The notes: generated from the sequence alone by a model not told the origin. Shown: positions 1,220-59,317, numbered from the stretch's first letter. The stretch is 64,000 nt of DNA from Victivallaceae bacterium (GCA_041665605.1 JBAYIO010000005.1:20641-84640), one strand, 5' to 3'. Program-made: numbers and translations.

Positions 1220-1465
1220 GCAGTAATTACAGCATATTGCCGTGTGGCGTAAAAGCTCAATTAATTCAATGATCAGCTACGCGTGAAGTTGATTATCCCT
1301 GCATCAAAGTTCAATATTGATCCGGCTTTACCCGATGATTTTCTCGTTACGAAGTCCTCATTCCGACAGACTGCCGGGCCGCATAACTGATTCTTTTATC
1401 GCTGCCGGCGCTGACATGTTTTCCGCTGGTATTGGTACTTTTTTGTTATTTTCTTAATTTACATA

Positions 1466-1494
1466 TTGACAAAAACAGAGATTTAATATATAAT
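1466..1494 (+). promoter_or_regulatory. sigma70-type promoter, perfect consensus (TTGACA-17 nt-TATAAT)
   Basis: TTGACA at 1466-1471, a 17-nt spacer, then TATAAT at 1489-1494. It lies 52 nt upstream of the ATG at 1546. Confidence 0.55.
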
Positions 1495-1498
1495 AACA

Positions 1499-1513
1499 TT
1501 GGACAGTGTCCAA
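1499..1513. promoter_or_regulatory. candidate operator, perfect 7-1-7 palindrome TTGGACA-G-TGTCCAA
   Basis: Starts 5 nt after the -10 hexamer, so it would overlap the predicted transcription start. An AraR-type regulator is encoded at the other end of the locus (7549-8616). Confidence 0.4.
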
Positions 1514-1545
1514 AAATAAAGCAATTGACCAAAACGGCGGATTTT

Positions 1546-2823: not shown

Positions 2824-2859
2824 TTGTTAAAATCAACCAAAATTATGGGGGTAAAAAAG

Positions 2860-3594
2860 ATGAAAACAACAGTAATCAACGGGAATCCTGGAAGGCGTTT
2901 TTTCACACTCATTGAACTCCTCGTGGTGATCGCGATCATCGCGATCCTCGCGGCAATGCTGCTTCCGGCGTTGAATAAAGCCAGGGAAAAGGCCAAGGCG
3001 ATCAAGTGCCTCAGCAATCAGAAACAGATAGGCACCGCGATCACAATGTATCTGGACAGTAATAATCAGTTTTTCTACAGTCCCTCCGTTGCAACGGCAT
3101 CCGAAGCGGGCGATCCGGCAAACGGCATGAACGTGATGTGGTCGGTACGTTTGAAGTTAGATAAATATCTGCCGACATATAATATCTTCTACTGTCCGAC
3201 AAATACGATCACCAATGACCTTAATTGTTCATACGGTTCATTCTATACAATAGTATCACCGAATTATCCGAATTACCCGGCAGTCTCAATGAAAAATCAG
3301 AAATATGCCAAAGTCGGATTTTCGAAGCTTGCATTAATCGGATGTTCATGGAGTGTCAGCACACAAAAACAGTGTTACAGAATGATTTTCAGCGGCGACA
3401 TTACCAGCGAACCTTACGGCCGGCCTTTTTTGACCCATGCCAATCAGGTGGATCTGCTGTTTGCTGACGGGCATGCGGCAGCAAAAGGCATCAATGAACT
3501 TAAGCCGCTATATTGTCCGCAGATTTATCTTACCAATCCTGTAAATATCGGGTCCGCCGCGGACAGAAGCGGTTCATTTTATTACAAGCTTTAA
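2860..3594 (+). CDS. prepilin-type N-terminal domain protein, H-X9-DG family (pseudopilin-like)
   Basis: [33 protein letters not shown]-terminus. C-terminal [12 protein letters not shown] (H-X9-DG). Start chosen at ATG 2860 (MKTTV), preceded by a GGGGG/A-rich stretch. Confidence 0.9.
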
Positions 3595-3629
3595 CCAAAA
3601 CGGCCAATGCAATTTTATCTGGAGCAAAT

Positions 3630-4970
3630 ATGAAGTTTAACAATGTTGTCATGCTGTCTGTACTATTCGCCGCCACAGGTTGTTCCGGTTTGAATACTGA
3701 TGTGAAAAAGTTTTTCAGTACCGGCGCCAACCCTGCGTCAACCCTGCCTGCCGATCAGATTTATCCGAAAGGTCAGCTCTTTCCGTTCAGCTTCTATTCA
3801 ACCGGCGGCGGGTCGGAAAAAAAGCGCGGTGAACTGCTGCCGGAAGCGGAGCTGCTGGCTGATCAGAAAGAGATTATTGACGCCGGCGTTACCATGATCG
3901 GACCGCAGTATGAATTGAACAACCGCATCGCCGCGGATGCCGCCAAGTACAAGGTGAAGGGTGTTTATACAATAATCCCGGTAATTGACGGGAAGGAAGT
4001 CACCAAAGAATATTTGAAGGAAATAAACGCAAGGAAAGAGCCGCTGGATATAGAGAAACTGCGGCAGTCGGTTTCCGATATCGTCAGCAAAGCCGGAGGC
4101 AGCAAAGAAATTGCCTGGTGGGATATTACTCCTGAAGAACTGCGCCCCTGGGTTCCGCAGGAATTGCTGCTGCTCAAGACCGCAACCGAGGCGATTAAGC
4201 AGGCCGATCCCGAAAAGCGTCCCGTCTTCATGTATTTTCCCGGCCATTATAACGGCAAAGCCATGGGGAAGCTGGCCGTTTATCTGGATATCATTGGCAA
4301 GGGCATGTACACCAATTACAGCAGTATGAAAAATTCAAGAAGCTGGTGCCGCTGGACCATCGAACAGGAAATTGAGGCGATTAAGCTTTCCGGTAACAAA
4401 AACTCCATTCCGGTAGCGGTTACCGAAATGTTCCAGCAGCCGCCCGCGGCGGAAGTAAAACTGATTGATTCATGGGTCAGGTATGATGTGTATTCCGCGC
4501 TGATCGCCGGGGCCAAAGGCGTATTGATATTTTCCGCTTCTAAACGACCAGATTTTTCCGCCAGAAAAGAATATCTGAACGCCTATTTTAAAGTCTGCCG
4601 CGATCTGAACGGGCCGCTGAAACTGGGACAGGTGTTTCTGTTCGGTGCGCCGATGAATGATATTACTCTCACGATTACCGACGGCCCGCAGACCGTGCCG
4701 TTCAAATATAAGACTGCCGGGGCGGACATCACCTATCCCGCGGTAAGCATGGCGAATATTGCGTACAACAGCAGCCGCTATATATTCCTGGTAAATTCCT
4801 CTGACAAGCAGATCGAGGCAGTAGTCGGCGGCCTGGTTTACGGCAGCGGCGTAACGATTGAAGATTTGTTTGCCGGCAGCGAAAAATTTACCGCACCTGA
4901 AGGTGATTTCAGCATAAAACTGGAACCGCTTGAAGCAAAAGCTTTCAGAATCTATAATGCTCAACCATAA
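3630..4970 (+). CDS. lipoprotein of unknown family (putative glycan hydrolase), paralog of 1546-2823
   Basis: Start at ATG 3630 with GGAG at 3621-3624. Lipobox LFAATG-C. Conserved blocks shared with 1546-2823. Confidence 0.75.
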   Translation: MKFNNVVMLSVLFAATGCSGLNTDVKKFFSTGANPASTLPADQIYPKGQLFPFSFYSTGGGSEKKRGELLPEAELLADQKEIIDAGVTMIGPQYELNNRIAADAAKYKVKGVYTIIPVIDGKEVTKEYLKEINARKEPLDIEKLRQSVSDIVSKAGGSKEIAWWDITPEELRPWVPQELLLLKTATEAIKQADPEKRPVFMYFPGHYNGKAMGKLAVYLDIIGKGMYTNYSSMKNSRSWCRWTIEQEIEAIKLSGNKNSIPVAVTEMFQQPPAAEVKLIDSWVRYDVYSALIAGAKGVLIFSASKRPDFSARKEYLNAYFKVCRDLNGPLKLGQVFLFGAPMNDITLTITDGPQTVPFKYKTAGADITYPAVSMANIAYNSSRYIFLVNSSDKQIEAVVGGLVYGSGVTIEDLFAGSEKFTAPEGDFSIKLEPLEAKAFRIYNAQP

Positions 4971-5006
4971 AATCTGTCTGCTGAATTATATTACACGGAG
5001 TTTCTG

Positions 5007-7562
5007 ATGCCTGAGAATGTTAAAATTGTCCTGAACAGTATTCGCCGCTGCTTTTATCGCGGGGAACATGCTGAATTCGAATTCACCCTGCTGAATTTCT
5101 TTCCTTATAATCTGCCGGGCTGCCGTCTGGAAGTTTCCGTCGGGGAACTCTGGTCGGATGCTTATGACATTCCGGTGTTATCAATTAATGCTGTAAACAT
5201 CAAGTTCAGATTCGATACTGCGATCCTGAAAAGCGGGGAGTATGTTCTCAAATGCCGTTTGTTGCAGCAGGATAAAACCGTTGCCGGAGCCGGCTTCAGC
5301 ATAACGGTGGCGACAGCCCGGAAACGCGGCTGCATGGAGTTATGGCACTGGCCGGCGACAGTTCATTACAACGCGCTCGAAGCTGATGATGAATCGGCCA
5401 GACTTGAAATCGACAAATTGGCGGCAATGGGCTACACCTGGGCGCAGCTCAGGGCGAGCTGGGCTGTGGTCAATCCGGGAAAAGCAACTGATTTGATCGA
5501 ATATGCCATGGCGCGCGGCATTGATATGGGCATTCTTATTGAAAACGGCAATGGCGGCTGCTTCAGGGCAGACCGTGACGTGCCGCCGGAAGCCAGGCTG
5601 ATTGACAGCAGCGGCAAGGTGACCGAATTCGTTTTTCCGCACCATCCAATGGTGTTGAATAAGCATCGGATATTGCTTGAACGCATCATGCTGCTGTTCC
5701 GGGAGCTGCCTTCATGCACCACCGTTTTTGTGAACAGCGAAGTGGAAGACAAATTGAAGCTGCCATGCAATCCGGAAGCGCTGAAAATGCACGAGGCGGC
5801 GCTGGGCTTTTCGCCTTTGGAAAAATTGAAAAGCACTGAACGGGTTTTTGCCTCACCCTATCCTGATGCGCCGTTTGTTTCTCCCGGCGTAATTGCCGAT
5901 GATGATCCGGAATATCTGTACGCCAAATACTTTTTTAAACACGGCGACGGTTTTGTCATAACCAACGGCACGATGGCTGAAGTTATTCACCGCTACCGTC
6001 CGGATGTAAAAGTTATTACCGACCCGCTGCGGCTGTGTTCAGTTTACGGGCGCTTTGACGGCGCGGATATTGTGAGTTCATGGACATATACCAACCCCGA
6101 CCCGAAAGCTACATTATTCATAGAAACGCTGCTGGCCGAGGCCCGCCCGGACAACAAGGATGTAATTCATACCATTACCCTGTGGAACTATGCAGGAAGC
6201 CTTATACCCAGCGGAAAAGACCGTTTTGCCCGCGACAAGACACTGCGCATGGAGCCGGACCGTTTGCTGGAAAATGCCTGGATTAATTTTGCGCGCGGCC
6301 CCAAAGGCATCGGAACTTACTTCGGCAGTCCCATGGAACTGTTTTTCGAAAACGGCGATCCGTTCATATATTCCCCGGAAACGGAAAAAGCCATCGGTGA
6401 TTTTGCGCTTAATGTGATGGCGCCGTTCGGCGAGATGGTCCGAAAAACCGCCGCGGTTCCGCGCCGGGCGGCCGTCCTTGACTCTTTTGCCTCCAGGGTT
6501 TATGGCGTCTGTCCCCGTCCTTACAATCATTATCCGATTTATTACATCTACAACTTTTATACTGTTTTGAATATGGCGCATATTCCGGCCGATGTGCTGT
6601 TCGACGAAACCATAGTTGAAAAAGGGCTTGACAGCTATGATTTGCTGGTGCTGCCCAACTGCGACACCTTGCCGGAAAGCGTCTATAAGGAGATATTGAA
6701 GTTTGTCCGCAAAGGTGGAATCGTCGTTGCCGACCAGTATCTCCGGGCGGACATTCCCGGCGTCATCCGCTTTGATTTTGACTTTACCTACCGTTCCCGC
6801 GTAAATGCCAATGCCAATGCGCGGGGAATGGATTTTGCCGTAAAAGACGATACTGCTTTCCGGCAGGACAGCGATGAAAAACAGCTTGAAGGGGTCACCG
6901 CCGAAGCTGACCAGCAGGCGCTTGAAACCTATGCGGCGAAAGTCCGCGAAACGCTTGACGGAAAAATTGTCCGTGACGTGGATTGTTCATCGCCGCGTCT
7001 GCTGCTGAATATGCGCGAATACAGCGGCATAAAATATCTCTTTGTCGTGAACGATCACCGTACTTACGGAGAGCGTGTCGGCAAATACAAATCAATGCTG
7101 GAAAAAGGGCTGCCCGAAAACGCGGAGTTCACTGTCCGCGATCCCGGTTTTGAGCCGGTAATTTACGAACTGACTACTCACTGCCGGCTTGAGTGCCGCA
7201 AAAATGCTGAAGGGAATTATAATTTCGAGCTGAATGTTCCCGCCGCCGGAGGGTGCATTGTTGCGTTTTATCCGGCTGCGCTGGGGCCGGCCGGGATTGA
7301 AGTTCCGCCATGTATTACACGCGGAACGCGCTCAGTCATTAACGTCTCGCTTGGAAATGCAGCCGGACTCCAGCCGCTGAAAATTGCCATGACAGACTCG
7401 AAAGGTTGCCGCAGCGAGTTCAGCGGATACTATCTGGCGGAAAACGGCTCATGCTCGATGGAATTTATCCCGGCGGCAAATGAGCCCTCCGGAAAATGGT
7501 CTGTGGAAACCATTGATTTGACATCCGGCGATAAATGCAGGAAAGATATTAATATTGCTTGA
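5007..7562 (+). CDS. large cytoplasmic protein, putative glycoside hydrolase with a GH42-like C-terminal module
   Basis: 851 aa with no signal peptide. GGAG precedes the ATG. The segment YDLLVLPNCDTLPESVYKEILKFVRKGGIVVADQ resembles the glutamine-amidotransferase-like trimerisation module of GH42-type enzymes. The family call is tentative. Confidence 0.6.
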   Translation: MPENVKIVLNSIRRCFYRGEHAEFEFTLLNFFPYNLPGCRLEVSVGELWSDAYDIPVLSINAVNIKFRFDTAILKSGEYVLKCRLLQQDKTVAGAGFSITVATARKRGCMELWHWPATVHYNALEADDESARLEIDKLAAMGYTWAQLRASWAVVNPGKATDLIEYAMARGIDMGILIENGNGGCFRADRDVPPEARLIDSSGKVTEFVFPHHPMVLNKHRILLERIMLLFRELPSCTTVFVNSEVEDKLKLPCNPEALKMHEAALGFSPLEKLKSTERVFASPYPDAPFVSPGVIADDDPEYLYAKYFFKHGDGFVITNGTMAEVIHRYRPDVKVITDPLRLCSVYGRFDGADIVSSWTYTNPDPKATLFIETLLAEARPDNKDVIHTITLWNYAGSLIPSGKDRFARDKTLRMEPDRLLENAWINFARGPKGIGTYFGSPMELFFENGDPFIYSPETEKAIGDFALNVMAPFGEMVRKTAAVPRRAAVLDSFASRVYGVCPRPYNHYPIYYIYNFYTVLNMAHIPADVLFDETIVEKGLDSYDLLVLPNCDTLPESVYKEILKFVRKGGIVVADQYLRADIPGVIRFDFDFTYRSRVNANANARGMDFAVKDDTAFRQDSDEKQLEGVTAEADQQALETYAAKVRETLDGKIVRDVDCSSPRLLLNMREYSGIKYLFVVNDHRTYGERVGKYKSMLEKGLPENAEFTVRDPGFEPVIYELTTHCRLECRKNAEGNYNFELNVPAAGGCIVAFYPAALGPAGIEVPPCITRGTRSVINVSLGNAAGLQPLKIAMTDSKGCRSEFSGYYLAENGSCSMEFIPAANEPSGKWSVETIDLTSGDKCRKDINIA

Positions 7563-8616
7563 CGCTGGTTCGCTCAACAAGCGTGCTATGGACATGGCTG
7601 ATTTCAGGCTTTTCGCCGTTCAGAATCCATTTTTGCAGCATATCGACAGCGGCTTCGCCCTGTTCGCGCGCCGGTTCAGCAAAAAACGACAATCCGTTGA
7701 GTTCCGCATCCGGCCAGGTGATTCCGTCATAAGAGATAACCGAAAGATCGTCGGGTATTCTGATCTTATGTTTCCGGCACGAACTGAAAAGCAGTGCGGC
7801 CCGGTAATCGCGAACTGTAAATATTGCGGTCGGCATATTTGTTTTGAGCCGGAGCAGATAATCATCGGTTTTCTCATGGTCCTCCTGGTAAATATCTGCC
7901 AGACACCACTCTTTGTTAAATTCCAGATCCTCTTCAGCCAGTGCGCCTTTGAATCCGGTGAAGAATTCTTTGTAAAAGTAATTTTCCGGACTGCCGAGCC
8001 AGATTCCGATGCGCCGGTGTCCCTTGCTCTTCAAATACCGTACCGCGTTTCTGGCAATTTCACGGAAATCCAAAAATACCTTTACCGCATCAAATCCGTT
8101 CATATCCGAAGCAATGACGTAAGGGATGCCGGCTTTTTCAAGCGGTTTGATCAGGTCTGCATAATTACCGCACTGCAAGTATATGACGCCCTGGATGTCG
8201 CCTTTGGTGTACAGTGTTATGATTTCATCGGTGACAGTATCCGAGTCGGAAAAATTCATCAGATATTCGGAATTTTTCCTCTCCGCGCCGGCACAGGCGC
8301 CAAGCAGTAACTGCGACGCCACCGGCAGATAATTGAAAGTCCCGAAGTCCGAGGTTTTCAGAAAAAAGCGCTTGAGCACCGGACGTCCGACCAGGGTTCC
8401 GGTCACCAGCACGCCGCGCCCCGGATAAAGCTGCACCAGCCCTTCTTCCTGCAGCAGGCGGAAAATATTATGCACCGTACTTTTGGAGATGTTGAGTTTT
8501 GCGCCGATCGAACGGGCCGACGGCAGATATGATCCCGGCTTGTATTTCCCGGATAAAATAGCCTCCCGCAGATAAGCACGTCCGCCCTGCGCTTTTGATT
8601 TGATTGTATCCGTCAT
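7549..8616 (-). CDS. AraR-type chimeric regulator (GntR wHTH N-terminus plus LacI/PBP1 sugar-binding C-terminus)
   Basis: N-terminus: ILSGKYKPGSYLPSARSIGAKLNISKSTVHNIFRLLQEEGLV...GRGVLV. C-terminus has LacI-type blocks (RRIGIW, TAIFTVRDY, IPDDLSVISYDG). Confidence 0.85.
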   Translation of the reverse strand: MTDTIKSKAQGGRAYLREAILSGKYKPGSYLPSARSIGAKLNISKSTVHNIFRLLQEEGLVQLYPGRGVLVTGTLVGRPVLKRFFLKTSDFGTFNYLPVASQLLLGACAGAERKNSEYLMNFSDSDTVTDEIITLYTKGDIQGVIYLQCGNYADLIKPLEKAGIPYVIASDMNGFDAVKVFLDFREIARNAVRYLKSKGHRRIGIWLGSPENYFYKEFFTGFKGALAEEDLEFNKEWCLADIYQEDHEKTDDYLLRLKTNMPTAIFTVRDYRAALLFSSCRKHKIRIPDDLSVISYDGITWPDAELNGLSFFAEPAREQGEAAVDMLQKWILNGEKPEISHVHSTLVERTSVKQY

Positions 8617-9660: not shown

Positions 9661-9662
9661 AT

Positions 9663-15082: not shown

Positions 15083-16510
15083 TTAAATTTTACCGGCATA
15101 CCATCGCCATGGCGGACACGTTTCATCTTTGCCGGCCCCATGTACCTGAGGCTGCTCCGTTTGAATATACCAGCGTAACAGTCTGATTTCCAAATCTCTT
15201 TGTATATGGGCATAAACCGGATTATCATAAAGATTGTTCAGCTCCTTCCGGTCGGCATCCAGATCATAAAGCTGTCCCCACGAGATTTGTTCCTTCCAGC
15301 ATATGGAGAGCTTGTGTGTTTTGGTGCGGACAGTCTTTACGAAGGGAGTTTCAAAAAATACCGCCTGCTTTGCATCCCATGGTTTTCCGCAACGCATCCC
15401 GCTGCCTGTTACTGCGCTGGCCAAACTCTGTCCCTGTACTGTATCCGGGCATTCGATTCCGCAAAGTTCAAGGATGGCAGGCATTACATCAACCATTTCT
15501 GTCAATTCGTGAATCTGTTCCTTGCCAGTTTTTCCTTTCCAGTAGAAAATGAGCGGAATATGGTGAAGGACATCGAATGTCGAAAGATTTTTTCCGAACT
15601 GGCCGTATTCTCCGCAAAAATCTCCATGATCTGCGGTAAATACGATGATTGTATTTTCGAGTTCGCCCATTTTTTCAAGCTGTTTCATGATCCTGCCGAT
15701 TTGGTCATCAATCATGCTTACAAGGCTGTAGTAATTGGCGATTGCCTGCCGCAATTTTTTTTCTCCGGTCTGGAAGACGTTCCACATATTCTCGCATCCG
15801 GGGCGTTTTACGTCAGGCTTATTGTACCATTTTTCGTCATATGGCGGAAGCTCTATATCATCGGGATTGTAAGGAAATGGGTTGTCATCAGGAACGCATG
15901 TTGGAGGATGCGGCCGCTCAAATGTGGACCACAGAAAAAAAGGTTTGTTTCTGTCTGCCTGCTCCAGATACTTTATGGTCTCATCGCCGGTCCATGCCTC
16001 TACGGAATGCTTGTAAGGAATATTGGAGACATAAGCATCATATTCTTTTACATGTGTGTCATTGTACCAGCCGTTGTCTCCGAAACCATGTTTTTTCAGG
16101 TATTCGTGATAATCGTTTTGCTCCCCGTCATTTCCTCCTGCGCAGATTCTGGAGTATTCAAACCCCATATCGTCACAATGCCCTGAATGAGTCTTGCCGA
16201 CAGTTGCGGTCTGGTAGTTGTGGTTATTTTTTAAAAAATTCGGCAGGGTAGTCAGAGAACTGACATCAACAGAATTGCAGTTTGTCATTATGCCGTGAGT
16301 ATGCAAATACTGTCCTGTAAGGAGAGTTACTCTTGAAGGCATGCATAGTGCCGACTGACTGTAAGTCCGCTGAAAATCAACACCACCCGCGGCAAGGCTG
16401 TCAATGTTAGGGGTTTTGACCACTTTGTTCCCATGACAGCCAAGCGCTTCATAGCGGTGCTGATCAGTCATAAAAATCAAGATGTTGGGCTTTTTTTTAT
16501 TTTCCATCAT
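15083..16510 (-). CDS. Cys-type (formylglycine-dependent) sulfatase
   Basis: NILIFMTDQHR followed by the CMPSRVTLLTGQ (C-x-P-S-R) signature. No signal peptide is visible. Confidence 0.9.
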   Translation of the reverse strand: MMENKKKPNILIFMTDQHRYEALGCHGNKVVKTPNIDSLAAGGVDFQRTYSQSALCMPSRVTLLTGQYLHTHGIMTNCNSVDVSSLTTLPNFLKNNHNYQTATVGKTHSGHCDDMGFEYSRICAGGNDGEQNDYHEYLKKHGFGDNGWYNDTHVKEYDAYVSNIPYKHSVEAWTGDETIKYLEQADRNKPFFLWSTFERPHPPTCVPDDNPFPYNPDDIELPPYDEKWYNKPDVKRPGCENMWNVFQTGEKKLRQAIANYYSLVSMIDDQIGRIMKQLEKMGELENTIIVFTADHGDFCGEYGQFGKNLSTFDVLHHIPLIFYWKGKTGKEQIHELTEMVDVMPAILELCGIECPDTVQGQSLASAVTGSGMRCGKPWDAKQAVFFETPFVKTVRTKTHKLSICWKEQISWGQLYDLDADRKELNNLYDNPVYAHIQRDLEIRLLRWYIQTEQPQVHGAGKDETCPPWRWYAGKI

Positions 16511-16573
16511 GCTTTACTGCATTTCTTTAAATTATCTGTCCGCTGACGAGCAAATCCCGTCAGGGTATTGCAC

Positions 16574-17977
16574 TTATTTCTTTTGATCTGCCGGGTTGTT
16601 TATCATTATGATACCGGCGGTCAATTCCGGCCAGTTTTTCCATTTCCAGAATGCCGGAGGCTGTGCTGCCGGCGTACCGCAGACGGTTCCCAGGAAAACA
16701 ACTATTTTGCCTTTGCCGTATTTTTTGCTGACCAGCAAAGGATAGCCGCCGGCCTTGAGCAGCACTTCCGCATCTTCCGCCGGTGCGAGGTCGTGCCGGT
16801 AGTAAACGCATGGTTTTTCTTTCCAGTCAATATTGCCGAACTGCTGAGCAGACGGTTCAATCAGCAATGGCGCGCTTGAACCTTTCACCTGCCAGGCGTC
16901 TTTGATTTTTACGGGGAGGAAATCATTAAGATATGAAGTCTGATATTCCCCTTTGTCCAGAGAAAACAAACCGCCTAAAATTATTAAATTCATGCCATTT
17001 TTTACATTCGCGATAATATTCTTCAGGACAAAATCAGGAATTACCTGATTGGGGCCGAAAGGGCAGTCGACCAGGATACAGGCTTTCGCTTTTTGCATTG
17101 ACACAGAGCCTGGCAGCCTGTTGATAAAAAATTTATTTTCCGGAGTCAACGCCGGTTCAGTGTTTTCAATATAATAATTTCTTATTTCTTTATCGCTGAC
17201 TCCATTCTTCAGCAGATTCGCGGCAATGTTGTAACGGTTGAATGATATTCCGTTGAAGATAATATAATCATTACGGGGGGAACTGCTCTGTTCCTCGTTT
17301 GGGCTGACTTTGGAAATAACTATATTATCAATCAGGAATTTCATTGGTTTCTCTGTCACGCCCCAGCAGCCAATGCGAAGTTTTCCTCCAAGATATTCCT
17401 GGCGTCCGAGGATTGCGGCAGCGCCGTCAATATATACCGGGTCAACCATGTCTCCCTGATAATACTCCACAAGATCATTGTCAGTGTCAAAATAAATCTT
17501 ATAATGCAGCCATTTATTTTTCTCCACATTGCTCAGGCGGCGATGGCCGACAGGTTCATTGTTAAAATATTTTATTCGTTTTGCAGTTGCTTCGGGAAAA
17601 TACCGTCTCCAGTCTTTACAGTAATCATGCCAGAAAAGGGTAATATTATAGAATTCAATAAACAGGCCGATGCCCTGTTCATTATGATTGACATTCAAGT
17701 CGAACTCAACACTTCCTTTCCGGATAACAGGAATCTCCGTCTCAATATATCCGCCCTGAAGTTTTTCAGCCGGGCTGGAGGTGACTTCCAGTTTGCCGTT
17801 TTTAATTACATAGGTGCTGGCTTCCTTATTCGATTCCGGCTGGTGTACGCTCCATTTTTCCCCAACCGGTTTTCCTTCCGGATAATTATTAAAGCTGATA
17901 TTCACTGCCGGTTCACCGCAGTGAAGAACACCGACGGCGGTCAACAGTAGAAAAGATATCAATAAGTATTTTTTCAT
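16574..17977 (-). CDS. secreted two-domain protein (LamG-like N-terminus plus amidotransferase-like C-terminus), a fused paralog of 20578-21228 and 19811-20554
   Basis: Has a signal peptide. The N-terminal half aligns with the 216-aa protein (LHYKIYFDTDNDLVEYYQGDMVDPVYID vs IKIKIVFDNNTKIVQYFIDDMENPVMID). The C-terminal half aligns with the 247-aa protein (EPALTPENKF...LIILGGLFSLDKGEY vs TPALTPENQF...LVILGGLFTLNKGEF). Confidence 0.75.
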   Translation of the reverse strand: MKKYLLISFLLLTAVGVLHCGEPAVNISFNNYPEGKPVGEKWSVHQPESNKEASTYVIKNGKLEVTSSPAEKLQGGYIETEIPVIRKGSVEFDLNVNHNEQGIGLFIEFYNITLFWHDYCKDWRRYFPEATAKRIKYFNNEPVGHRRLSNVEKNKWLHYKIYFDTDNDLVEYYQGDMVDPVYIDGAAAILGRQEYLGGKLRIGCWGVTEKPMKFLIDNIVISKVSPNEEQSSSPRNDYIIFNGISFNRYNIAANLLKNGVSDKEIRNYYIENTEPALTPENKFFINRLPGSVSMQKAKACILVDCPFGPNQVIPDFVLKNIIANVKNGMNLIILGGLFSLDKGEYQTSYLNDFLPVKIKDAWQVKGSSAPLLIEPSAQQFGNIDWKEKPCVYYRHDLAPAEDAEVLLKAGGYPLLVSKKYGKGKIVVFLGTVCGTPAAQPPAFWKWKNWPELTAGIIMINNPADQKK

Positions 17978-18014
17978 TCGCCAATCCTTTATTAAGCAGT
18001 ATGGCCCCGCTTCG

Positions 18015-19814
18015 TTACTGATTTGCAGTTTCTATCAGCACACTTGCGCCCCAGGTCACTGACTGAATTTTCACTGTAACCGTATTGTTTTCGACGCTGG
18101 ATTCAAGTACCGCGGAATTAGGTTCAGGTTCAGCGTTGAGCACTACTGCCTGCTTAAACTTTTCATTGCTGTTTTTATTAAAAGTCAGAACGACATTCTG
18201 CTGCGGAGCCGGAATCTTATGATCCGCCAGGATATTCTTTCCTTCAGGCAGATTAACCATATTTATCATCAACTCTCTGCCCGTTGCCGTTTGTTTTTCA
18301 AATACCCACTGTTTCCAGAACAGCCGCTTGCCGCCTGCCACGGATATGGTATTGAACCGCTTGTCTTCGGACAGCAGCTTAAACTCGTTGTTATAGAAAT
18401 AGGCGGAATAGCGCATTGCGTACCGCCATATTTTCCAGTTTTCGCCCCGTGGCAAATCTCTGTCCATCGGGCCGATCCAGTGAATTCCGGAATAGACGAA
18501 TAAATATGGCAGCAGCTTAGCCGTCACTGTCGCGCTGGCTGGCGGCGGGCTCATCCAGCCGATTCCAACCTGACAGTTGTTCAGCCTGGACAGGCTTGCG
18601 TCCTGAGTGATTTTTGTAATCCATTCCTCCCAGGTATATTTTTCATAATTGAGCAGATATTCAAACCAAAGCCATGAATTCGTTGAGGCCTCTTTATGAT
18701 ATTTTTCCAAAGCGGCAACTTTTTGCGCAATTTCATCGCCGGCATTGGTCCCATAAATGAATTCCGGATGGGTTTCTGCTACTCCTTTCCTGAAAGCCTG
18801 CAAAAATTTAGTTCCTTCGGTATCCTGGTCCGGATATAATTCCCTGGCGCTTTTACCTGCAAAGTTAAACCAGTCGGATTTAGTCGCCCGCATCGGATCG
18901 CCGATTGTAGCCGGCAGAAAAGCCCAGTCAAAGCGGCATCCGTCCCAGCCGAACATGTCAATGGATTTTGCCATTTCCCGGCCCCATTTATAGGCATTCT
19001 CTTCATTGTACAGATATGAAGTGTAAGCAATCGCGTACCGTTTTCCATTATGAACAGTTCCGTTGTAAAGCAGCGGCTGTCCGTTTTTTCCGTAACGGAA
19101 ATACTCCGGATGATCAAGGCCTGTCGGCAGGGCCACTTCCCCGTTCATCCAAGGGAAGACCGCAATCCCGTTTTGATGAGCTTCGGCGACAAAACTTTTT
19201 ACGAATTTCTTGTTGACAACAGCTTCATAGCTTACCTGGGATTCCGTATGGGGCATCCATTCATCCTCCGGAGGCGTTAAACCGGTCATCGGGCATGACG
19301 TCCAGGTGTAATATTCGGCAAAAGAAAAATAATTTCTTCTTAATTCATCAATATATACTTTTTCCTGTCCCGGCTTACTGAACCATCCCGGATTGGCGAC
19401 ACTATATTGCCCCGCACTTGTGATGACATTGGTTACCGCGGCATATTCGCTGCGCGAATCAATGAGTTTGCCGTTCAGATACAGCTCTACTCTAAATTCA
19501 TAGCCGCCGTCGTTTTTCCCGCTATCCCAGGAAACTTTAATTTTCTTGTCTTCGGCAGGCGCGAGTGATACCGGTTGTTTGCCGATAATTCTTTTATCAG
19601 CAATGCCGAATGTAACAGAACACACCGTATCTATCTGCTGTGGAGAAGTTGAACGGTTTGTCAGTAAGATTTCCGCATTGGACGGCACATTCAGTTTATA
19701 AACAATTTTACCGATCCTGATTGTATCGACTGTCACAATTTTGTCTGCCATTGCCGGAACGGACAAAATTACACCTAAAAACATTGTATTTAGAATCAAC
19801 AGCAATTTCTTCAT
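18015..19814 (-). CDS. secreted protein of unknown family (possible TIM-barrel glycoside-hydrolase-like)
   Basis: 599 aa with signal peptide MKKLLLILNTMFLGVILSVPAMA. Its start overlaps the upstream stop (ATGA at 19811-19814). The GWDGCRFDW block is only suggestive of a GH-like barrel. Confidence 0.65.
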   Translation of the reverse strand: MKKLLLILNTMFLGVILSVPAMADKIVTVDTIRIGKIVYKLNVPSNAEILLTNRSTSPQQIDTVCSVTFGIADKRIIGKQPVSLAPAEDKKIKVSWDSGKNDGGYEFRVELYLNGKLIDSRSEYAAVTNVITSAGQYSVANPGWFSKPGQEKVYIDELRRNYFSFAEYYTWTSCPMTGLTPPEDEWMPHTESQVSYEAVVNKKFVKSFVAEAHQNGIAVFPWMNGEVALPTGLDHPEYFRYGKNGQPLLYNGTVHNGKRYAIAYTSYLYNEENAYKWGREMAKSIDMFGWDGCRFDWAFLPATIGDPMRATKSDWFNFAGKSARELYPDQDTEGTKFLQAFRKGVAETHPEFIYGTNAGDEIAQKVAALEKYHKEASTNSWLWFEYLLNYEKYTWEEWITKITQDASLSRLNNCQVGIGWMSPPPASATVTAKLLPYLFVYSGIHWIGPMDRDLPRGENWKIWRYAMRYSAYFYNNEFKLLSEDKRFNTISVAGGKRLFWKQWVFEKQTATGRELMINMVNLPEGKNILADHKIPAPQQNVVLTFNKNSNEKFKQAVVLNAEPEPNSAVLESSVENNTVTVKIQSVTWGASVLIETANQ

Positions 19815-20554
19815 TTAGCATCAGCTCCTTTCTTTATCATGTCTGCCGCAAATTTCGCCCATGCCGGATTTTTCCAGAATAGAGCGGTTGCGGTATCGGC
19901 GGTTCCGGATGGGATTCCCAGGAAAACTATAATTTGTCCTTTTTCACATTTTTTTGTAATCCACAACGGCTGATTATTGGATTTATAGATAATCTCCGCA
20001 TCATCAACCAATGGAATATCATGCAGATAAACCACCACCCCGCCTGGAGTCTCAAGCGGATTTTTCAGCTTTTTTACCGCCCATGGATTTTCGGTTTTTG
20101 CCGGCAGAAGTGAAGCGAACGGAGTCTGGCTGAATTCCCCTTTGTTCAAGGTGAAAAGCCCTCCCAGTATTACTAAAGTGGCGCCGCGCCTGACATCTTT
20201 AATGATAGATTTCTGGGCAATATCGGGCATTACTCCGGCATTTAAAGGGAAGTCGGCCATGATGATATATTTTCTGGCTTTCTTCGGGTTTATCGGCGGG
20301 AGTTTATCAAGCCTGAATTGATTCTCCGGTGTCAACGCCGGAGTGAGATTGGTGATAGTATAATCCGCCGTCTTTTTGACTCCCAGTTCTTTCAAAATTT
20401 CCGGAATTTTATAACGTTCGAAAGCAATTCCGCGAAAAACCAGGGCTTCATCCGCCAGTACATCCGCCTCTGCCGTTCCTGCTCCCGCCGCAATCAGGAA
20501 GCTGAAATAAACAATCAGTGGAGGCAGCATCATAAGTTTCCATCGTGTTTGCAT
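19811..20554 (-). CDS. secreted protein, class-I glutamine-amidotransferase-like fold (tentative)
   Basis: 247 aa with a signal peptide. Paralog of the C-terminal half of 16574-17977. Confidence 0.65.
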   Translation of the reverse strand: MQTRWKLMMLPPLIVYFSFLIAAGAGTAEADVLADEALVFRGIAFERYKIPEILKELGVKKTADYTITNLTPALTPENQFRLDKLPPINPKKARKYIIMADFPLNAGVMPDIAQKSIIKDVRRGATLVILGGLFTLNKGEFSQTPFASLLPAKTENPWAVKKLKNPLETPGGVVVYLHDIPLVDDAEIIYKSNNQPLWITKKCEKGQIIVFLGIPSGTADTATALFWKNPAWAKFAADMIKKGADAK

Positions 20555-20577
20555 GTCATTCCTTACAAAAAAACAGA

Positions 20578-21228
20578 TTATTTGCTCAAGCTAATGCTAA
20601 ACATCTTGTGTTCCAGTTTCCCGGCCGCCAGTCCATAGTTTCCAATAAGCAATAACGGAGCAGATGCATCGACTGGCACGAGGGTCACGTTTTCATCGAT
20701 CATCACCGGATTTTCCATGTCATCAATAAAATATTGAACAATCTTCGTATTATTGTCAAATACTATTTTAATTTTTATCTTTTTGCCGAGCGGAACATTA
20801 TCCGCAACATCTTTCCATTTCTCGTCATAATAACGCATCAATTTCTGATTTCCCATCATCTTAAAGGCCAGGTTGAGGTTATATATGTTGGTTTGCAGAG
20901 AGAAGTGATCGTACTGTGCGCCATTCGTATCAAGTGCAACTTCAAAAGTCAGTGTTCCTGAAGTGATTGCCGGAATTATTTGATGTATATTCCCGCCTTT
21001 GTAGGGTGCATTGGAAAACAGCATTCTCAGGTATCCGTCTTTCAGGCTGAATTCAGTCGCCTGGCCTGTAAAACTTTTCCAGCCTGCATCTTCAAGACTG
21101 GTGATTTTGCTGAAGTCCTGCTGGAAAACAACCTCGTTATCGGCCATTGCCGCCGGCATAATCCATGCCCCAGGCATCATCATACACGCTGCGACCATGA
21201 TTCTTTTAATACTTTTCCGGAATTTCAT
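20578..21228 (-). CDS. secreted LamG/concanavalin-like protein (tentative)
   Basis: 216 aa with a signal peptide. Paralog of the N-terminal half of 16574-17977. Confidence 0.65.
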   Translation of the reverse strand: MKFRKSIKRIMVAACMMMPGAWIMPAAMADNEVVFQQDFSKITSLEDAGWKSFTGQATEFSLKDGYLRMLFSNAPYKGGNIHQIIPAITSGTLTFEVALDTNGAQYDHFSLQTNIYNLNLAFKMMGNQKLMRYYDEKWKDVADNVPLGKKIKIKIVFDNNTKIVQYFIDDMENPVMIDENVTLVPVDASAPLLLIGNYGLAAGKLEHKMFSISLSK

Positions 21229-21277
21229 TTTGTTTCTCCTTTTTTATCTTCTATTATTTATTTCAAAATGGTATCGT

Positions 21278-22012
21278 TTACAACGAAGTATTGAAGCGGT
21301 AGAAATACTTAAGCGGCCTGGCGCTGCTTACATGACCATCCATATACACGGCATTGGCATAGGAACTATGTCTGTAGGCTGCGGCACAACCCGGGTCGCC
21401 GGGAAGAATCTGTGCCCCGTTATGAGGTGAATCATATTGCTCTACCGTCTCATCGTTGGCATCCGTCAGAAAGAAAACATAAGTTGGAACTTTAATCTGA
21501 TTCGGTTTAACCAGTTTCCACGATCCTCCGCTCATCAGTTGCTGATTATACCCGTAACCGAAAGCAGGTACGCCGCCATACTTGATATAGGAGGAATTTG
21601 AGCCTATTGTCGGCCACGGCTGGGATGGTTCCTGGGCTTCGGGACAGGTGAAGATACAAGTGCGTTTCTTGGACAGATCCCATAACCCGTTCGGCCCGTT
21701 GATTCCTACATATTTCATTATATTTTCACCCCAGAATGCGTAAAGTCCAACCTGTTTGCCTCCCGAGCTGCCGTTCGGCAGGCACCAGTCATAATCATTC
21801 ATATACATTGAGTGTGCAGTGCCGAATTGCTTGAGTTGACTTTGGCATGCGCCGCTTCTGGCGGTTCTTCTGGCTTTACTCAATGCAGGCAGCAGCATGG
21901 CGGCCAAAATTGCAATGATGGCGATCACGACCAGGAGTTCGATGAGTGTGAAATTTTTGTAATTTCTCAGGTTCTTCCTTGACTGATTTGGAACAACGGC
22001 TCTTGCTTTCAT
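21278..22012 (-). CDS. prepilin-type N-terminal domain protein, H-X9-DG family (pseudopilin-like)
   Basis: [30 protein letters not shown]-terminus. C-terminal [12 protein letters not shown]. Confidence 0.9.
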
Positions 22013-22039
22013 TTTGTCTTCTCCGTTAAATGTTAGGGT

Positions 22040-23164
22040 TTAAATACAAACTTCTTCCATTTTTTTTTCTTTTGTCCAACCTGACGCAACTTTACTTTTC
22101 TGGCGGAATTGCAAAACATAGTCCAAAGCTTCCCGGAGACTAAGTGTTGCAAGCCCGCAATAAAAATCAACCGCGCCGTAATACATGAATATTTCGTTAT
22201 CAACCACGACATTGGCACAGGGGAAAATGCATTTCGGATACCGGCCGTTCAGCTCATATGACGCCTCCGGTTCCATAATCGGCATGGGGGATCTGGCAAT
22301 AACTTTTTTTGGGTCCTGCCGGTCCAGCAGCATCAGGCCGACGCGATAAACGCCATCCCTGTCCACGGCGTGGTAGAAAGTCAGCCAGCCGTCATCGGTG
22401 GAAATCGGGACGCCGGAACCGCCTACTTTTAACTTTTCCCATTCATATTCCGGCTTGATCAGCAGATGATCGTCGGGGATATCTCTGCCGTCTTTCATGT
22501 CCCACGGCATTTCTTTGGCGTCGGACGCACAACAAGTCATGGTATCGGCAAATGATATCCAGATACAACCCGGATTGTAAATCAATGGCAGAGTCCACGG
22601 GATGAACGGGGTCGGGCGGTGCAGCATGACATATTTCCCGTTGATTTTCTCCGGGAACAGCGCCACATTTGCGTCGCTCATGTGTTCACTGGTAACCGGT
22701 CCGAGCCGCTCGACCTTTTTCCAGTCCGAGGTTGCCGCCAGTCCCACCCGCCGGAAATTATCAGTCCAGGTCGGGCTCATGTTGCCGTTCGGGCCGACAC
22801 GACGTTCCCGTTCAGCATGTTTCTTCATATTGAACGAGCGTCCTGCATAAGCGATATAATATTTACCTTCGAATTCAGTAATTCTGGAATCTTCAACAGA
22901 ACCGTGATCGAAATCATCCGGGTTGTCGGATGGGCGCAAAAACGGTTCAGGCGCGCAGTCGAAATTGATTCCGTCTGAACTATTGGCATAACCCAGTACC
23001 ATATCTCCGCCACTGCCAAGCAGATCGGTAGACGCGGTGAACAGCATATGAAACTTGCTGCCGTCAAAGATTACCCCGGGATTGCGCGCTTCATCGCGTC
23101 CCCATGGCAGATTTGGATTTGGTCCAAGGATTGGATTATTTTTAAACCGTCTGATGTTTAACAT
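22040..23164 (-). CDS. GH130 family beta-mannoside phosphorylase/hydrolase
   Basis: NPILGPN...RNPGVIFDG, GSVEDSRITEFEGKYYIAYAG and ALFPEKINGKYVMLHRP match recalled GH130 (DUF377) blocks. No signal peptide. Confidence 0.8.
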   Translation of the reverse strand: MLNIRRFKNNPILGPNPNLPWGRDEARNPGVIFDGSKFHMLFTASTDLLGSGGDMVLGYANSSDGINFDCAPEPFLRPSDNPDDFDHGSVEDSRITEFEGKYYIAYAGRSFNMKKHAERERRVGPNGNMSPTWTDNFRRVGLAATSDWKKVERLGPVTSEHMSDANVALFPEKINGKYVMLHRPTPFIPWTLPLIYNPGCIWISFADTMTCCASDAKEMPWDMKDGRDIPDDHLLIKPEYEWEKLKVGGSGVPISTDDGWLTFYHAVDRDGVYRVGLMLLDRQDPKKVIARSPMPIMEPEASYELNGRYPKCIFPCANVVVDNEIFMYYGAVDFYCGLATLSLREALDYVLQFRQKSKVASGWTKEKKMEEVCI

Positions 23165-23228
23165 TTAAATCTCCAGATTTTTTTTATTTATTTTATCCTG
23201 CAAGTTTATCCCGCAGGAATAATTAAAT

Positions 23229-24323
23229 TCATCTTGGTATGAGCCGTGGCGATATTCTAATGATTTTCTGAGCCGGCATTGCCTGCCCGGAAAGCACTTC
23301 CACCGCTTTGCGTCCCATGCTGCCAAAATCAATTGATATTGTCGGAAAAGACAAGTTTTGTGACAATTGTGGATTCAAATTATCATAGCCGATCACATCA
23401 ATGTTATTTCCCGTGGCTTGACAGTATTCTTTGGCGCCGAAAGCCAGATAATCATTAACGCATAATATCGCATCGAATTTACGTCCTGAACTTAAAGCCC
23501 GTTTCGCAAGCTCAGTTCCCATTTCAATTATACCTCTGGCATCCTTGCCGACCGGACTGCCGCCGTTAAGTATCAAATCAGGATGCATTTTAATTCCACC
23601 ATCGTTCAGGGCTTGCAGAAAACCCTCAATGCGGTGATGATAGTTTTCGTCTTCAACGTCATAACTGAACACTGCAAACTCGCGATGTTCCTTATTGATC
23701 ATATATTCAGCAGCCAGATACCCGCCGGCAAAGTCATCATTGAAAATGCCGACAATATTAGCCGGAGCATCGGAAAAGTTGGCAATGTCATAGTTGATAA
23801 GCACAAAGCGAACATCAGGAAAGGCTCTTAAACTGTCGAGACTTTTATCGCGGTACACGTCTGACAGCAGAACAATTCCAGTCAGCGCCATTTCCCGGCT
23901 GGTGCGATAAAAATCAATATTTTCATCCAGTCCCCCGGTAATGAAAAAAGGCACTACCTTCAAGTCCTGTCCTTTCTCCGCAATTCCGCGGTAGATCGCC
24001 ATTTCCAGTAAGTTGCTTTCCATTTCCTGCAGCGAGTGATGGCAATTGATTCCAACCATCCGTCTCTGGCCCATATTGGAAAAGACACTGTGCGCCACGA
24101 AAGTTCCTTTCTTGGGACGGCGGTAACAAACTCCGTCTTCAACTAAGGCCATCATAGCCAGATCTGCGGTGCGCAGGCTTACTCCTGTCATTTCAGCGAT
24201 CTGCTTTACATTCGGAATCGGCGCATCCGGTTCAAGCTTATTGCTGGCTATATAATCCCGCAACTGCTTCTTTATTTGCAGATACACTGGCGTTCCATTT
24301 AATTTTCGTTCTTGAATTAACAT
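23229..24323 (-). CDS. AraR-type chimeric regulator (GntR wHTH plus LacI/PBP1 domain)
   Basis: N-terminal wHTH: PIPNVKQIAEMTGVSLRTADLAMMALVEDGV..RRPKKGTFV. C-terminus has LacI-type blocks (AILCVNDYLAFGA, IDVIGYDN). Confidence 0.85.
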   Translation of the reverse strand: MLIQERKLNGTPVYLQIKKQLRDYIASNKLEPDAPIPNVKQIAEMTGVSLRTADLAMMALVEDGVCYRRPKKGTFVAHSVFSNMGQRRMVGINCHHSLQEMESNLLEMAIYRGIAEKGQDLKVVPFFITGGLDENIDFYRTSREMALTGIVLLSDVYRDKSLDSLRAFPDVRFVLINYDIANFSDAPANIVGIFNDDFAGGYLAAEYMINKEHREFAVFSYDVEDENYHHRIEGFLQALNDGGIKMHPDLILNGGSPVGKDARGIIEMGTELAKRALSSGRKFDAILCVNDYLAFGAKEYCQATGNNIDVIGYDNLNPQLSQNLSFPTISIDFGSMGRKAVEVLSGQAMPAQKIIRISPRLIPR

Positions 24324-24336
24324 AGTTCACACTCTA

Positions 24337-24375
24337 ATTATACTTGATTATACTATGATTATATTCAGATTATAC
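24337..24375. repeat. four helically phased copies of ATTATAC/ATTATAT (GTATAAT on the minus strand)
   Basis: Copies at 24337, 24347, 24358 and 24369 (spacing 10, 11, 11 nt), immediately upstream of the regulator ATG at 24323. Confidence 0.7.
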
Positions 24376-24386
24376 TTGGCTGTCAA
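24358..24386 (-). promoter_or_regulatory. sigma70-type promoter, perfect consensus on the minus strand (TTGACA-17 nt-TATAAT)
   Basis: Minus-strand TTGACA (plus-strand tgtcaa, 24381-24386), a 17-nt spacer, then TATAAT (plus-strand attata, 24358-24363). About 35 nt upstream of the regulator start at 24323. Confidence 0.5.
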
Positions 24387-24565: not shown

Positions 24566-24579
24566 TGCTTACTAACGCA

Positions 24580-57787: not shown

Positions 57788-58057
57788 AGTAGTCGCCCTT
57801 GACGCAAGTGAAAAAAGAGACTGCGGATTAATGCCTGAACCAGATAACCTAGATAACAAGCACCGAAGAATCACAAAATAGTTCGCGATGTCCTCCCCTC
57901 AATCTAAAAAACATTACGTGCAGCAATTTTGCTTGCAAATATCTTGCAAAGTATAATCTTATTAAGCTCACTATGCGGATATTTTGATCCGTCATAAAGA
58001 GGCATTGCATAAATTTAAATATTTATCAATAAAATTAAATAAAATTGTATAAAAAAG

Positions 58058-58086
58058 TTGACAAATGTTTTTTGAAGTACTATAGT
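58058..58086 (+). promoter_or_regulatory. sigma70-type promoter (TTGACA-17 nt-TATAGT)
   Basis: TTGACA at 58058-58063, a 17-nt spacer, then TATAGT at 58081-58086. ATG 58093 begins 7 nt after the -10 hexamer. Confidence 0.5.
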
Positions 58087-58092
58087 ATTTAT

Positions 58093-59303: not shown

Positions 59304-59317
59304 GGAAAAAATTTAAA

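Follow-up and report, generated by a model that had tools for sequence, protein, structure and literature searches.

The window analyzed here is a stretch of 64,000 nucleotides (nt) from a gut-type Victivallaceae bacterium of the Lentisphaerota (GCA_041665605.1 JBAYIO010000005.1:20641-84640). Its positions 15,083 to 24,386 hold locus B, an operon-like group of eight genes coding for an AraR-type regulator, a glycoside phosphorylase-like enzyme of family GH130, a prepilin-like protein of the H-X9-DG/DUF1559 family, four secreted proteins of 216, 247, 599, and 467 amino acids (aa), and a sulfatase (Table 1). An earlier note on this DNA had proposed that the prepilin-like protein is a locus-specific component of a glycan capture, uptake, or export route. 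The succession of a regulator, such a prepilin, and a secreted enzyme was found to recur far outside the window, and the head of the prepilin turned out to have been replaced between closely related strains.

Organization and control region of locus B

All eight open reading frames (ORFs) of locus B were verified on the minus strand (15083-24323) at the coordinates first given. From the regulator gene to the sulfatase gene, they are separated by 64, 27, 49, 23, -4, 37, and 63 nt, the value of -4 representing an ATGA overlap (19811-19814) of the genes for the 247-aa and 599-aa proteins. The eight-gene operon with small gaps described in the earlier note was hence reproduced in its coordinates, gaps, and overlap. 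The perfect TTGACA-17-TATAAT site that the note had placed before the regulator gene was present too (24386-24358), being the sole 12/12 promoter-like match within the scanned region 14700-24650, and the same scan revealed no terminator-like site on the operon strand in any intergenic gap of locus B. Given this lone perfect match and the lack of intergenic terminator-like sites, a single transcription unit would be the simplest reading of the locus. Contigs of the same strain are present in the ENA, JGI, NCBI, and Logan assemblies.

The control region contains four matches to AGTATAATC with at most one mismatch, among which the exact copies are spaced 22 nt, and no other such cluster occurs in the window. 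These boxes may constitute an operator array for AraR-type regulators. One more exact copy of AGTATAATC (57950-57958, +) precedes the regulator gene of locus C, a further locus of the window, by about 90 nt.

Table 1. Features of locus B and of two further loci in the window (positions counted from the first letter of the window)
Feature	Position	Strand	Remarks
Promoter-like site TTGACA-17-TATAAT	24358..24386	-	upstream of regulator gene; read directly
Four tandem AGTATAATC-like boxes, candidate operator array	24336..24376	-	10-11 nt apart; overlap -10 hexamer and leader
AraR-type regulator, 364 aa	23229..24323	-	GntR winged helix and LacI-type sugar-binding domain (Pfam)
GH130 glycoside phosphorylase-like enzyme, 374 aa	22040..23164	-	Pfam PF04041; no signal peptide, cytoplasmic
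H-X9-DG/DUF1559 prepilin-like protein, 244 aa	21278..22012	-	20-residue leader, helix, ~190-aa head
Secreted 216-aa ConA-like (jelly-roll) protein	20578..21228	-	paralogue of N-terminal half of 467-aa protein
Secreted 247-aa GATase1-like protein	19811..20554	-	paralogue of C-terminal half of 467-aa protein
Secreted 599-aa GH66-like glycosidase candidate	18015..19814	-	N-terminal beta-sandwich, (beta/alpha)8 barrel, C-terminal beta-sandwich
Secreted 467-aa two-domain protein	16574..17977	-	ConA-like lectin/glucanase fold and GATase1-like domain
Cys-type S1 sulfatase, 475 aa	15083..16510	-	Pfam Sulfatase; CMPSR motif; no signal peptide, cytoplasmic
Tract replaced between strains	21100..21900		prepilin head, 3' spacer, and ~first 120 nt of 216-aa gene
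Locus A, same layout	1432..8616		prepilin 2824-3594 (+) between two paralogous secreted proteins; 851-aa protein; convergent regulator 7549-8616 (-)
Locus C, same layout	58045..62510	+	GntR/LacI regulator 58045-59271, prepilin 59318-59983, secreted 718-aa GH123-like protein 60354-62510

Regulator, cytoplasmic enzymes, and secreted proteins

The regulator displays the AraR-type architecture, a GntR winged helix (42.8 bits, residues 14-76) joined to a LacI/periplasmic-binding-protein effector domain (Peripla_BP_3, 49 bits, residues 205-364). The regulators of loci A and C (7549-8616 and 58045-59271) have an identical domain make-up, and orthologues of the locus B regulator head the same cassette in the related contigs L005, L006, L088, L091, and L098. 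The GH130 protein scored 151.9 bits with Glyco_hydro_130 (cut-off 26), and its closest solved structures are a 1,2-beta-oligomannan phosphorylase (9fj8; 1e-50) and a beta-1,2-mannobiose phosphorylase (7fip). It stayed under the NCBIfam equivalog cut-off (203 versus 450), and it is considered a putative phosphorylase on the indirect support of these closest relatives and of the lack of a signal peptide. The sulfatase (PF00884, 171 bits) carries the C-x-P-x-R motif in its translation and is closest to the solved structures of a GlcNAc-6-sulfatase (5g2v) and a mucin-desulfating sulfatase (7p24). Pfam and NCBIfam thus bore out the assignment of all three proteins in the earlier note. Judging from these enzymes, the substrate of locus B is probably a sulfated, beta-mannoside-bearing glycan.

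The four remaining proteins, all with signal-peptide-like N-termini, had been regarded as unplaceable. Folds could now be assigned to them. The 467-aa protein passed Pfam PF07090 (GATase1_like) with 36.6 bits (cut-off 27), and its AlphaFold2 model (mean predicted local distance difference test (pLDDT) score 87) consists of a ConA-like (concanavalin A-like) jelly roll, matched in Foldseek by GH16 enzymes and legume lectins, and a C-terminal GATase1-like domain, matched by STM3548 (2gk3) and a GATase1-like protein of P. limnophilus (3rht). Class I glutamine amidotransferases have a catalytic Cys in the nucleophile elbow. In this second half, the family alignment contains no invariant or near-invariant Cys, and the conserved stretch around G335-G336 (ILGGLFSL) is free of Cys. 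BLASTP aligned the 216-aa protein with the N-terminal half of the 467-aa protein over 176 aa at 26% identity (E 7e-10), and the 247-aa protein with the C-terminal half over 233 aa at 38% identity (E 5e-44). In addition, domains like those of the 216-aa and 247-aa proteins are fused into one 408-aa protein in L004, a metagenome-assembled genome (MAG) of the Planctomycetes. The operon therefore holds two copies of a two-domain module, one fused and one split, and the three proteins concerned are probably glycan-binding or scaffold accessory proteins.

The 599-aa protein was modeled by AlphaFold2 with a pLDDT of 79.6 and a predicted template modeling (TM) score of 0.82. Its top Foldseek matches were GH66 dextranases and cycloisomaltooligosaccharide glucanotransferases (CITases), which cover all three domains (5axg, E 1e-28, TM score 0.66) at an identity of merely 9-14%. 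At the sequence level, neither the protein nor its family profile had a match in Pfam (PF13199 included) or the PDB. A distant homologue (P0012) does carry Pfam GH66. Most homologues are about 1015 aa long and carry an additional N-terminal region of about 440 aa. Residues D291, D296, E375, and E385 are invariant in the family and are candidates for the catalytic Asp/Glu pair. From its modeled fold, the 599-aa protein is best described as a candidate new family of GH66-like glycosidases.

Downstream of the operon, past a spacer of 310 nt, lies a gene (12403-14772, minus strand) whose secreted product of 789 aa combines a right-handed beta-helix with a Laminin_G_3 domain. This gene is syntenic in every contig of this strain, and its product may belong to the same regulon as locus B.

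The H-X9-DG prepilin-like protein

The N-terminus of the prepilin passed both N_methyl PF07963 (32.1 bits, cut-off 21.2) and TIGR02532 (21.6 bits, cut-off 16.3), and it contains the motif FTLIE at residues 21-25 with Glu at +5. A regular-expression search located the H-x9-DG motif typical of TIGR04294 and PF07596 at residues 215-226 (H215, D225-G226). With DUF1559 (PF07596), the protein scored 22.0 bits over residues 46-90, slightly under the cut-off of 23.3. Its two paralogues in the window passed (24.4 and 26.8 bits), and close relatives have a precomputed PF07596 match. In an alignment of 27 divergent family members, the helix F21-A37 is invariant, with V28 near-invariant, and the stretch onward to L44 is invariant or near-invariant except for A38. 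In the head, C56, Q62, Y70, C123, H215, and G226 are invariant, and W94, P124, Y153, N220, D225, and H227 are near-invariant. Profile comparison of the prepilin family with the PDB matched solved pilins over the N-terminal helix only. Similarly, GspG (TIGR01710) was matched over residues 20-74 only, with 32 bits (cut-off 88.85), and the GspG globular domain PF08334 gave no match in the locus B prepilin. Some family members have been named type II secretion system (T2SS) GspH-family proteins by NCBI. Because the helix is invariant over such divergent members, a shared type-IV-filament machine is proposed into which these proteins would fit.

The family is large, 7998 of the 8000 scored candidates being recovered at E <=0.001. 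The head alone as a query retrieved only 311 representatives at E <=0.001 among 1.84 billion clusters, and the heads are therefore too divergent for a single-sequence census. Within the family, the locus B prepilin belongs to a discrete subgroup of 49-72% identity, beyond which identity drops sharply to <=39%.

Alternatively, the pilin-like N-terminus might be a membrane anchor or class-III-type signal that tethers a periplasmic module for binding or sensing to the inner membrane, and the protein would then not be a filament subunit. Sugar-binding proteins with pilin signals are known from the bindosome of Sulfolobus and offer an analogy. This would agree with the position before the helix, which is not Gly in 73% of the family, with the Pfam identifier of PF07596 (SBP_bac_10) and the name solute-binding used in papers, and with a tight pairing with a sugar-sensing regulator. 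Furthermore, the conserved head residues Q62, Y70, H215, and G226, and nearly so N220, D225, and H227, suggest a common ligand or metal site. However, Glu at +5 and the entire helix are conserved more strictly than an anchor needs, in Victivallales operons no transporter (ABC or other) neighbours the prepilin as a partner, and the head replacement described below would be more typical of an exposed antigen than of a specific receptor. This explanation is considered quite improbable.

Head-like sequence also occurs beyond the format of about 240 aa (P0171, P0184), one protein of 2356 aa having 14 matching stretches, and proteins of 571-580 aa bear a C-terminal H-X9-DG head, one of them encoded in a prepilin operon (L090, 3991-5733). 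Independent short-read assemblies of the same strain (L002, L003, and L101, each at position 1) break in or beside prepilin genes, in the helix-coding part. Over this part, the prepilin paralogues of the window agree at 62-70 of 90 nt. The family probably fragments MAG assemblies and thus may be under-counted.

A recurrent layout of regulator, prepilin, and secreted enzyme

One genome per GTDB species was scanned with the prepilin profile, which yielded 80 independent prepilin-centred loci from Lentisphaerota, Verrucomicrobiota, and other lineages, all of them selected for holding a prepilin gene. Genes were called with an own codon-score caller, the prepilin genes being placed first (both this caller and the signal-peptide test are crude). 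Regulators were found with a hidden Markov model built from the window regulators, and genes of the same loci that lay five or more positions away served as controls. A regulator gene occupied position -1 of the prepilin gene in 14 of 120 cases, versus 0-2 at all other positions from -6 to +6 (Fisher odds ratio 9, p = 2.4e-7). Twelve of these 14 regulator genes share the strand of the prepilin gene, with gaps of -4 to 214 nt, and 12 of 19 regulator genes had a prepilin gene of the same orientation directly after them. Pfam matches of the 97 immediate upstream neighbours comprised Peripla_BP_3 (18), GntR (10), LacI (6), and AraC (4). On the other side, directly downstream genes coded for proteins with a mean length of 589 aa, compared with 297 aa for distant genes, and with a signal-peptide-like N-terminus in 52% versus 24% of cases (p = 8e-7). 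They matched Laminin_G_3, GH42, GH123, GH39, DUF4838, DUF6259, CBM9, and AXE1, whereas the distant genes were housekeeping genes. A typical gene string thus reads regulator, prepilin, secreted protein of 600-1200 aa, cytoplasmic proteins. This positional enrichment, together with downstream genes rich in secreted proteins and carbohydrate-active enzymes (CAZymes), indicates that the layout is real and general, and the enrichment of H-X9-DG genes next to AraR-type regulators and CAZymes that the earlier note had proposed to test for was found over these 80 loci.

The layout might still have arisen without any functional link, from gene density and sampling, as prepilin paralogues are numerous and adjoin many kinds of genes. 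Indeed, the family is huge, with 67-74 paralogues per genome in papers and three in this 64-kb window, and the loci were chosen for their prepilin gene and analyzed with the crude tools mentioned. However, the enrichment is strand-specific and confined to position -1 within the same loci, which density cannot account for. Near and far genes of the same loci differ sharply, and the cassette retains its prepilin gene across phyla. A mere by-product of density is hence disfavoured as very improbable.

The retention across phyla became apparent from related genomes. The enzymes of L005 (JGI), at 58-65% identity the closest to those of locus B outside the species, are encoded together with a GntR/LacI regulator and two prepilins, the order being sulfatase, regulator, two prepilins, proteins of 215, 250, 1022, and 470 aa, and GH130. 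The Victivallaceae MAGs L006/L007 contain a regulator, a prepilin, proteins of 220, 239, and 1019 aa, a GH130, a sulfatase, a GH123_N protein, and a second GH130. In L004 (GCA_023150565.1), genes for a prepilin, proteins of 1031 and 463 aa, and a GH130 are accompanied on the other strand by the fused counterpart of the 216-aa and 247-aa proteins and a second prepilin gene. Homologues of the 599-aa and 467-aa proteins co-occur on contigs. Metagenome contig scans with the 599-aa protein and the 851-aa protein of locus A returned no relatives. A prepilin gene was present in all related cassettes (L004, L005, L006, L007, L091, and L098). From the gene content of L004-L007, the prepilin is therefore a constant cassette member across phyla, and the recurrence noted within the window extends well past it, to other Victivallaceae and a Planctomycetes MAG. 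The rule of exactly one pseudopilin per locus applied to the three loci of the window, but not to the related cassettes of L005 and L004, which carry two.

The two prepilins of L005 are about 29% identical to that of locus B, like random family members. Moreover, the operon of L088/L089 combines a regulator (84% identity to locus B), a GH130 (88%), and a prepilin (51%) with a GDSL+DUF6259 protein, and that of L090 a regulator (36%) and a prepilin (51%) with other proteins and a SASA esterase. Prepilins of the subgroup thus also occur in operons with different enzymes.

Replacement of the prepilin head between strains

Contig L091 belongs to a closely related strain and is 91-99% identical to the window in nucleotide sequence (bins of 100 nt) on either side of a tract of about 800 bp. 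Over 21700-21200, this identity falls to 54-62%, and the blastn alignment is missing over about 21248-21704. The tract has sharp edges, one at about 21900, just past the helix-coding part of the prepilin gene, and the other at about 21100, inside the start of the gene for the 216-aa protein. At the protein level, L091 is 97-100% identical to the window for most of the locus and for the gene upstream of it (URO-D-like upstream gene, 97%; regulator, 97.5%; GH130, 97.1%; 599-aa protein, 98.7%; 467-aa protein, 100%; sulfatase, 99.4%), with 91.7% for the 216-aa and 94.6% for the 247-aa protein. The prepilins are 60% identical overall, with 86% in the N-terminal 80 residues and 48% in the head. An assembly chimera was rejected as the origin of the L091 allele, which is present in the same arrangement in two independent samples. 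L098 is farther from the window in its regulator (80%) and GH130 (87%), yet its head is closer (68.5%), and the trees are incongruent. The closer head of L098 despite its greater distance and the bounded tract in L091 therefore indicate allele replacement rather than uniformly fast evolution.

Co-variation of the head with the downstream enzymes gave mixed results in seven informative pairs, and strict enzyme- or glycan-specific recognition by the head was rejected as leading idea, because the prepilins of L005 are not orthologous and the head has been swapped in L091. Of the proposal that the pseudopilin is a locus-specific part for glycan capture or uptake, conserved membership of the cassette was retained; a locus-specific role of the head was not supported, in view of the heads of L005, the occurrence in operons with other enzymes, and the L091 swap.

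The idea of the earlier note corresponds to a capture or uptake pilus, the head of which binds the glycan of the operon while the filament extends and retracts and so brings the polymer to the envelope or periplasm, as in the MUL2 system of Akkermansia. The same co-location and co-conservation apply to such a pilus, and PVC (Planctomycetes-Verrucomicrobia-Chlamydiae) bacteria provide a precedent (PMC13174399, PMC12418764). Moreover, Pfam searches revealed no transporter, TonB-dependent receptor, or SusD-like gene in loci A-C or among the other large window ORFs scanned, yet the final enzymes are cytoplasmic. The absence of a transporter and a SusC/D pair from the three loci had been noted before, whereas the absence of a binding protein, stated along with it, is weakened by the ConA-like domains, which could bind glycan. 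A head suited to a class of sugars would fit L088, where a prepilin of about 51% identity accompanies a regulator and a GH130 of 84-88% identity and a different secreted enzyme, and even strong strain-level divergence is compatible with binding. Still, an orthologous cassette has unrelated heads (L005), the heads of two strains are 48% identical when their enzymes are 97-100% identical, and no retraction ATPase or secretin is encoded nearby. The secreted ConA-like proteins are the more obvious glycan binders, and a pilus cannot move sugars over the inner membrane, so that a transporter would still be required. Glycan capture by the head is hence judged unlikely.

A possible role in export or display

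The reading preferred here, with a probability of roughly 0.45, is that the prepilin is coupled to its operon and provides an exposed subunit to a shared type-IV-filament (T2SS-like) machine within a system resembling a polysaccharide utilization locus (PUL), with a leaning towards export or display. The AraR-type protein would probably keep its own promoter repressed as long as no sugar effector is bound. Upon induction, the secreted GH66-like glycosidase and its ConA-like and GATase1-like accessories would act outside the cytoplasm, oligosaccharides would enter via a transporter encoded elsewhere, and the cytoplasmic sulfatase and GH130 phosphorylase would complete the breakdown. The prepilin gene is a regular part of such operons, their usual order being regulator, prepilin, large secreted enzyme or enzymes, and then cytoplasmic enzymes. 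The near-invariant N-terminal helix may plug the prepilin into the shared machine, be it T2SS-like or pilus-like, so that each induced operon would bring its own filament subunit with a head exposed at the envelope. The prepilin would then export or display the secreted enzymes of its operon, rather than its head reading the glycan. This reading is favoured by the anatomy of the operon, the conserved cassette, the positional statistics, the invariant helix, the exchange of the head between strains, and the induction of a pseudopilin-containing operon by alginate in a relative (see below).

Several points weigh against this interpretation. First, the FTLIE helix is preceded by Asn (21955-21953), and among 120 family members this position is Gly in 32 (27%), Ser in 19, and Asn in 18, with Ala, Thr, and Cys also common. 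A residue other than Gly is unexpected for substrates of canonical prepilin peptidases. Since Gly is rare at this position, canonical cleavage of the prepilin, and hence filament assembly, is putative and unproven, and the position points to either a relaxed, archaeal-like prepilin peptidase or no cleavage. Secondly, genes for filament assembly (ATPase, platform, secretin, and prepilin peptidase) are absent from the 64-kb window, and T2SS E/F/G genes were found near just one related cassette, that of L005 (1-2419, directly upstream of the sulfatase-regulator-prepilin cluster). Thirdly, T2SS pseudopili are normally periplasmic, which fits poorly with a head under diversifying pressure. Fourthly, head replacement is known from one strain pair, the window and L091, and the near-identical pair L066/L075 has no excess divergence of the head. 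Lastly, the data are compatible with export or display and with glycan capture alike.

Comparison with known systems

PVC bacteria such as Lentisphaerota, Planctomycetota, and many Verrucomicrobiota play a major part in the degradation of complex and sulfated glycans. To our knowledge, they lack PULs of the SusC/D type, and no function is known for their largest paralogous family, DUF1559/H-X9-DG. The literature searched treats DUF1559 only as an expanded PVC family without known function, as the earlier note had stated, and names it solute-binding after Pfam. P. limnophila is reported to have 68 paralogues, of which two are essential, and R. baltica 74. Neither the layout of regulator, prepilin, and enzyme nor the replacement of heads was found to be described in this literature. 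Locus B combines two known kinds of elements, a PUL-like operon and a type-IV-filament subunit, in a layout that, like the head replacement, is new to the literature searched.

With the SusC/SusD PULs of Bacteroidota, locus B shares the organization in substrate-specific, regulator-linked clusters that join secreted or surface proteins for degradation and binding to later-acting enzymes, and the presence in each locus of one recurrent, family-defining, fast-evolving envelope component. It differs in that neither a SusC-like TonB-dependent transporter nor SusD is encoded in the three loci or the scanned ORFs, the marker being a prepilin-like protein instead. Furthermore, the last steps (sulfatase and GH130) are cytoplasmic, and regulation is by AraR/LacI-type proteins instead of hybrid two-component or extracytoplasmic function (ECF)/anti-sigma systems. 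The T2SS pseudopilins (GspG/PulG and GspH-K) resemble the prepilin in their class III leader, FTLIE with Glu at +5, and hydrophobic N-terminal helix. In contrast, the locus B head is unrelated to theirs by sequence, its gene belongs to a catabolic operon and not to a gsp cluster, tens of paralogues occur per genome, and in the H-X9-DG family the helix is frequently preceded by a residue other than Gly. Modular or adhesive type IV pilins, such as PilB and PilC of Streptococcus sanguinis and the cellulose-binding pilin of Ruminococcus albus, possess a head or grafted module that confers binding to glycans or surfaces. Unlike the prepilins considered here, they are few per genome, are encoded within a pilus cluster, and have no operon link to regulators or CAZymes.

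Within PVC bacteria, the MUL2 locus of Akkermansia (Amuc_1099-1102) encodes a type IV-like pilus required for mucin uptake (PMC13174399, PMC12418764) and thus ties a type-IV-pilus-like system experimentally to glycan foraging. However, MUL2 is a single conserved locus, which codes for a PilM-like protein and a pilin of archaeal type, and does not represent one pilin paralogue in each catabolic operon. No PilM match was obtained in Pfam searches among the scanned window ORFs. The closest parallel is an alginate-induced operon of Verruconatronum alginivorum (pgaptmp_000046-60), which is up-regulated on the substrate in proteomes and in which a pulG-like pseudopilin with 67 paralogues is encoded amid secreted polysaccharide lyases; another pseudopilin is induced too, and T2SS export of the alginate lyases has been suggested by the authors (PMC13274419, 2026). 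This operon differs in including an SSF transporter and in its origin from the Opitutales, another phylum-level lineage. The pseudopilin is incidental to that report, which describes neither the general layout nor the variability of the head.

The gene order offers a practical rule for finding glycan-utilization operons in PVC bacteria, along with new families of enzymes like the GH66-like one of locus B, and gives the DUF1559 family a concrete, testable role. In addition, an envelope component that varies between strains may shape phage and host interactions in gut Victivallaceae. More tentatively, and with doubt outweighing confidence, H-X9-DG/DUF1559 prepilins might define a new class of glycan-utilization loci in Lentisphaerota and related PVC bacteria, in which interchangeable heads on a shared type-IV filament would take the envelope-level place of SusC/D and would be exchanged between strains under phage or host pressure. 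If true, this would explain why the family has grown to tens or hundreds of copies per genome.

Other loci in the window

A regular-expression search located three H-X9-DG prepilin genes in the window, at 2824-3594 (+), 21278-22012 (-), and 59318-59983 (+), and each of them shares its cluster with a gene for a GntR/LacI chimera. Loci A and C follow the scheme of locus B, as the earlier note had observed. The secreted paralogues of locus A (1432-4970; 425 and 446 aa) gave no Pfam match and have the motif TLPAD(K/Q)(V/I)YP in common, the second one bearing a lipoprotein-like signal (LFAATGC). The 851-aa protein of this locus is cytoplasmic and contains a GH42M-like domain, and exact-protein look-ups for locus A returned the same strain only. 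Locus C has a G+C content of 32-38% (58-62 kb), versus 43-57% in all other 2-kb bins of the window, and its genes were scarcely scored by the codon-score gene caller, which suggests that it may have been acquired horizontally in recent times.

Between loci A and B, the gene for an XPB/ERCC3-type helicase (469 aa) directly precedes a DUF790 gene (413 aa, 217 bits) at 9663-12314 (+). A longer antisense ORF (9579-11264) is spurious, and the two genes match the XPB-Bax1-like pair of archaea and some bacteria.

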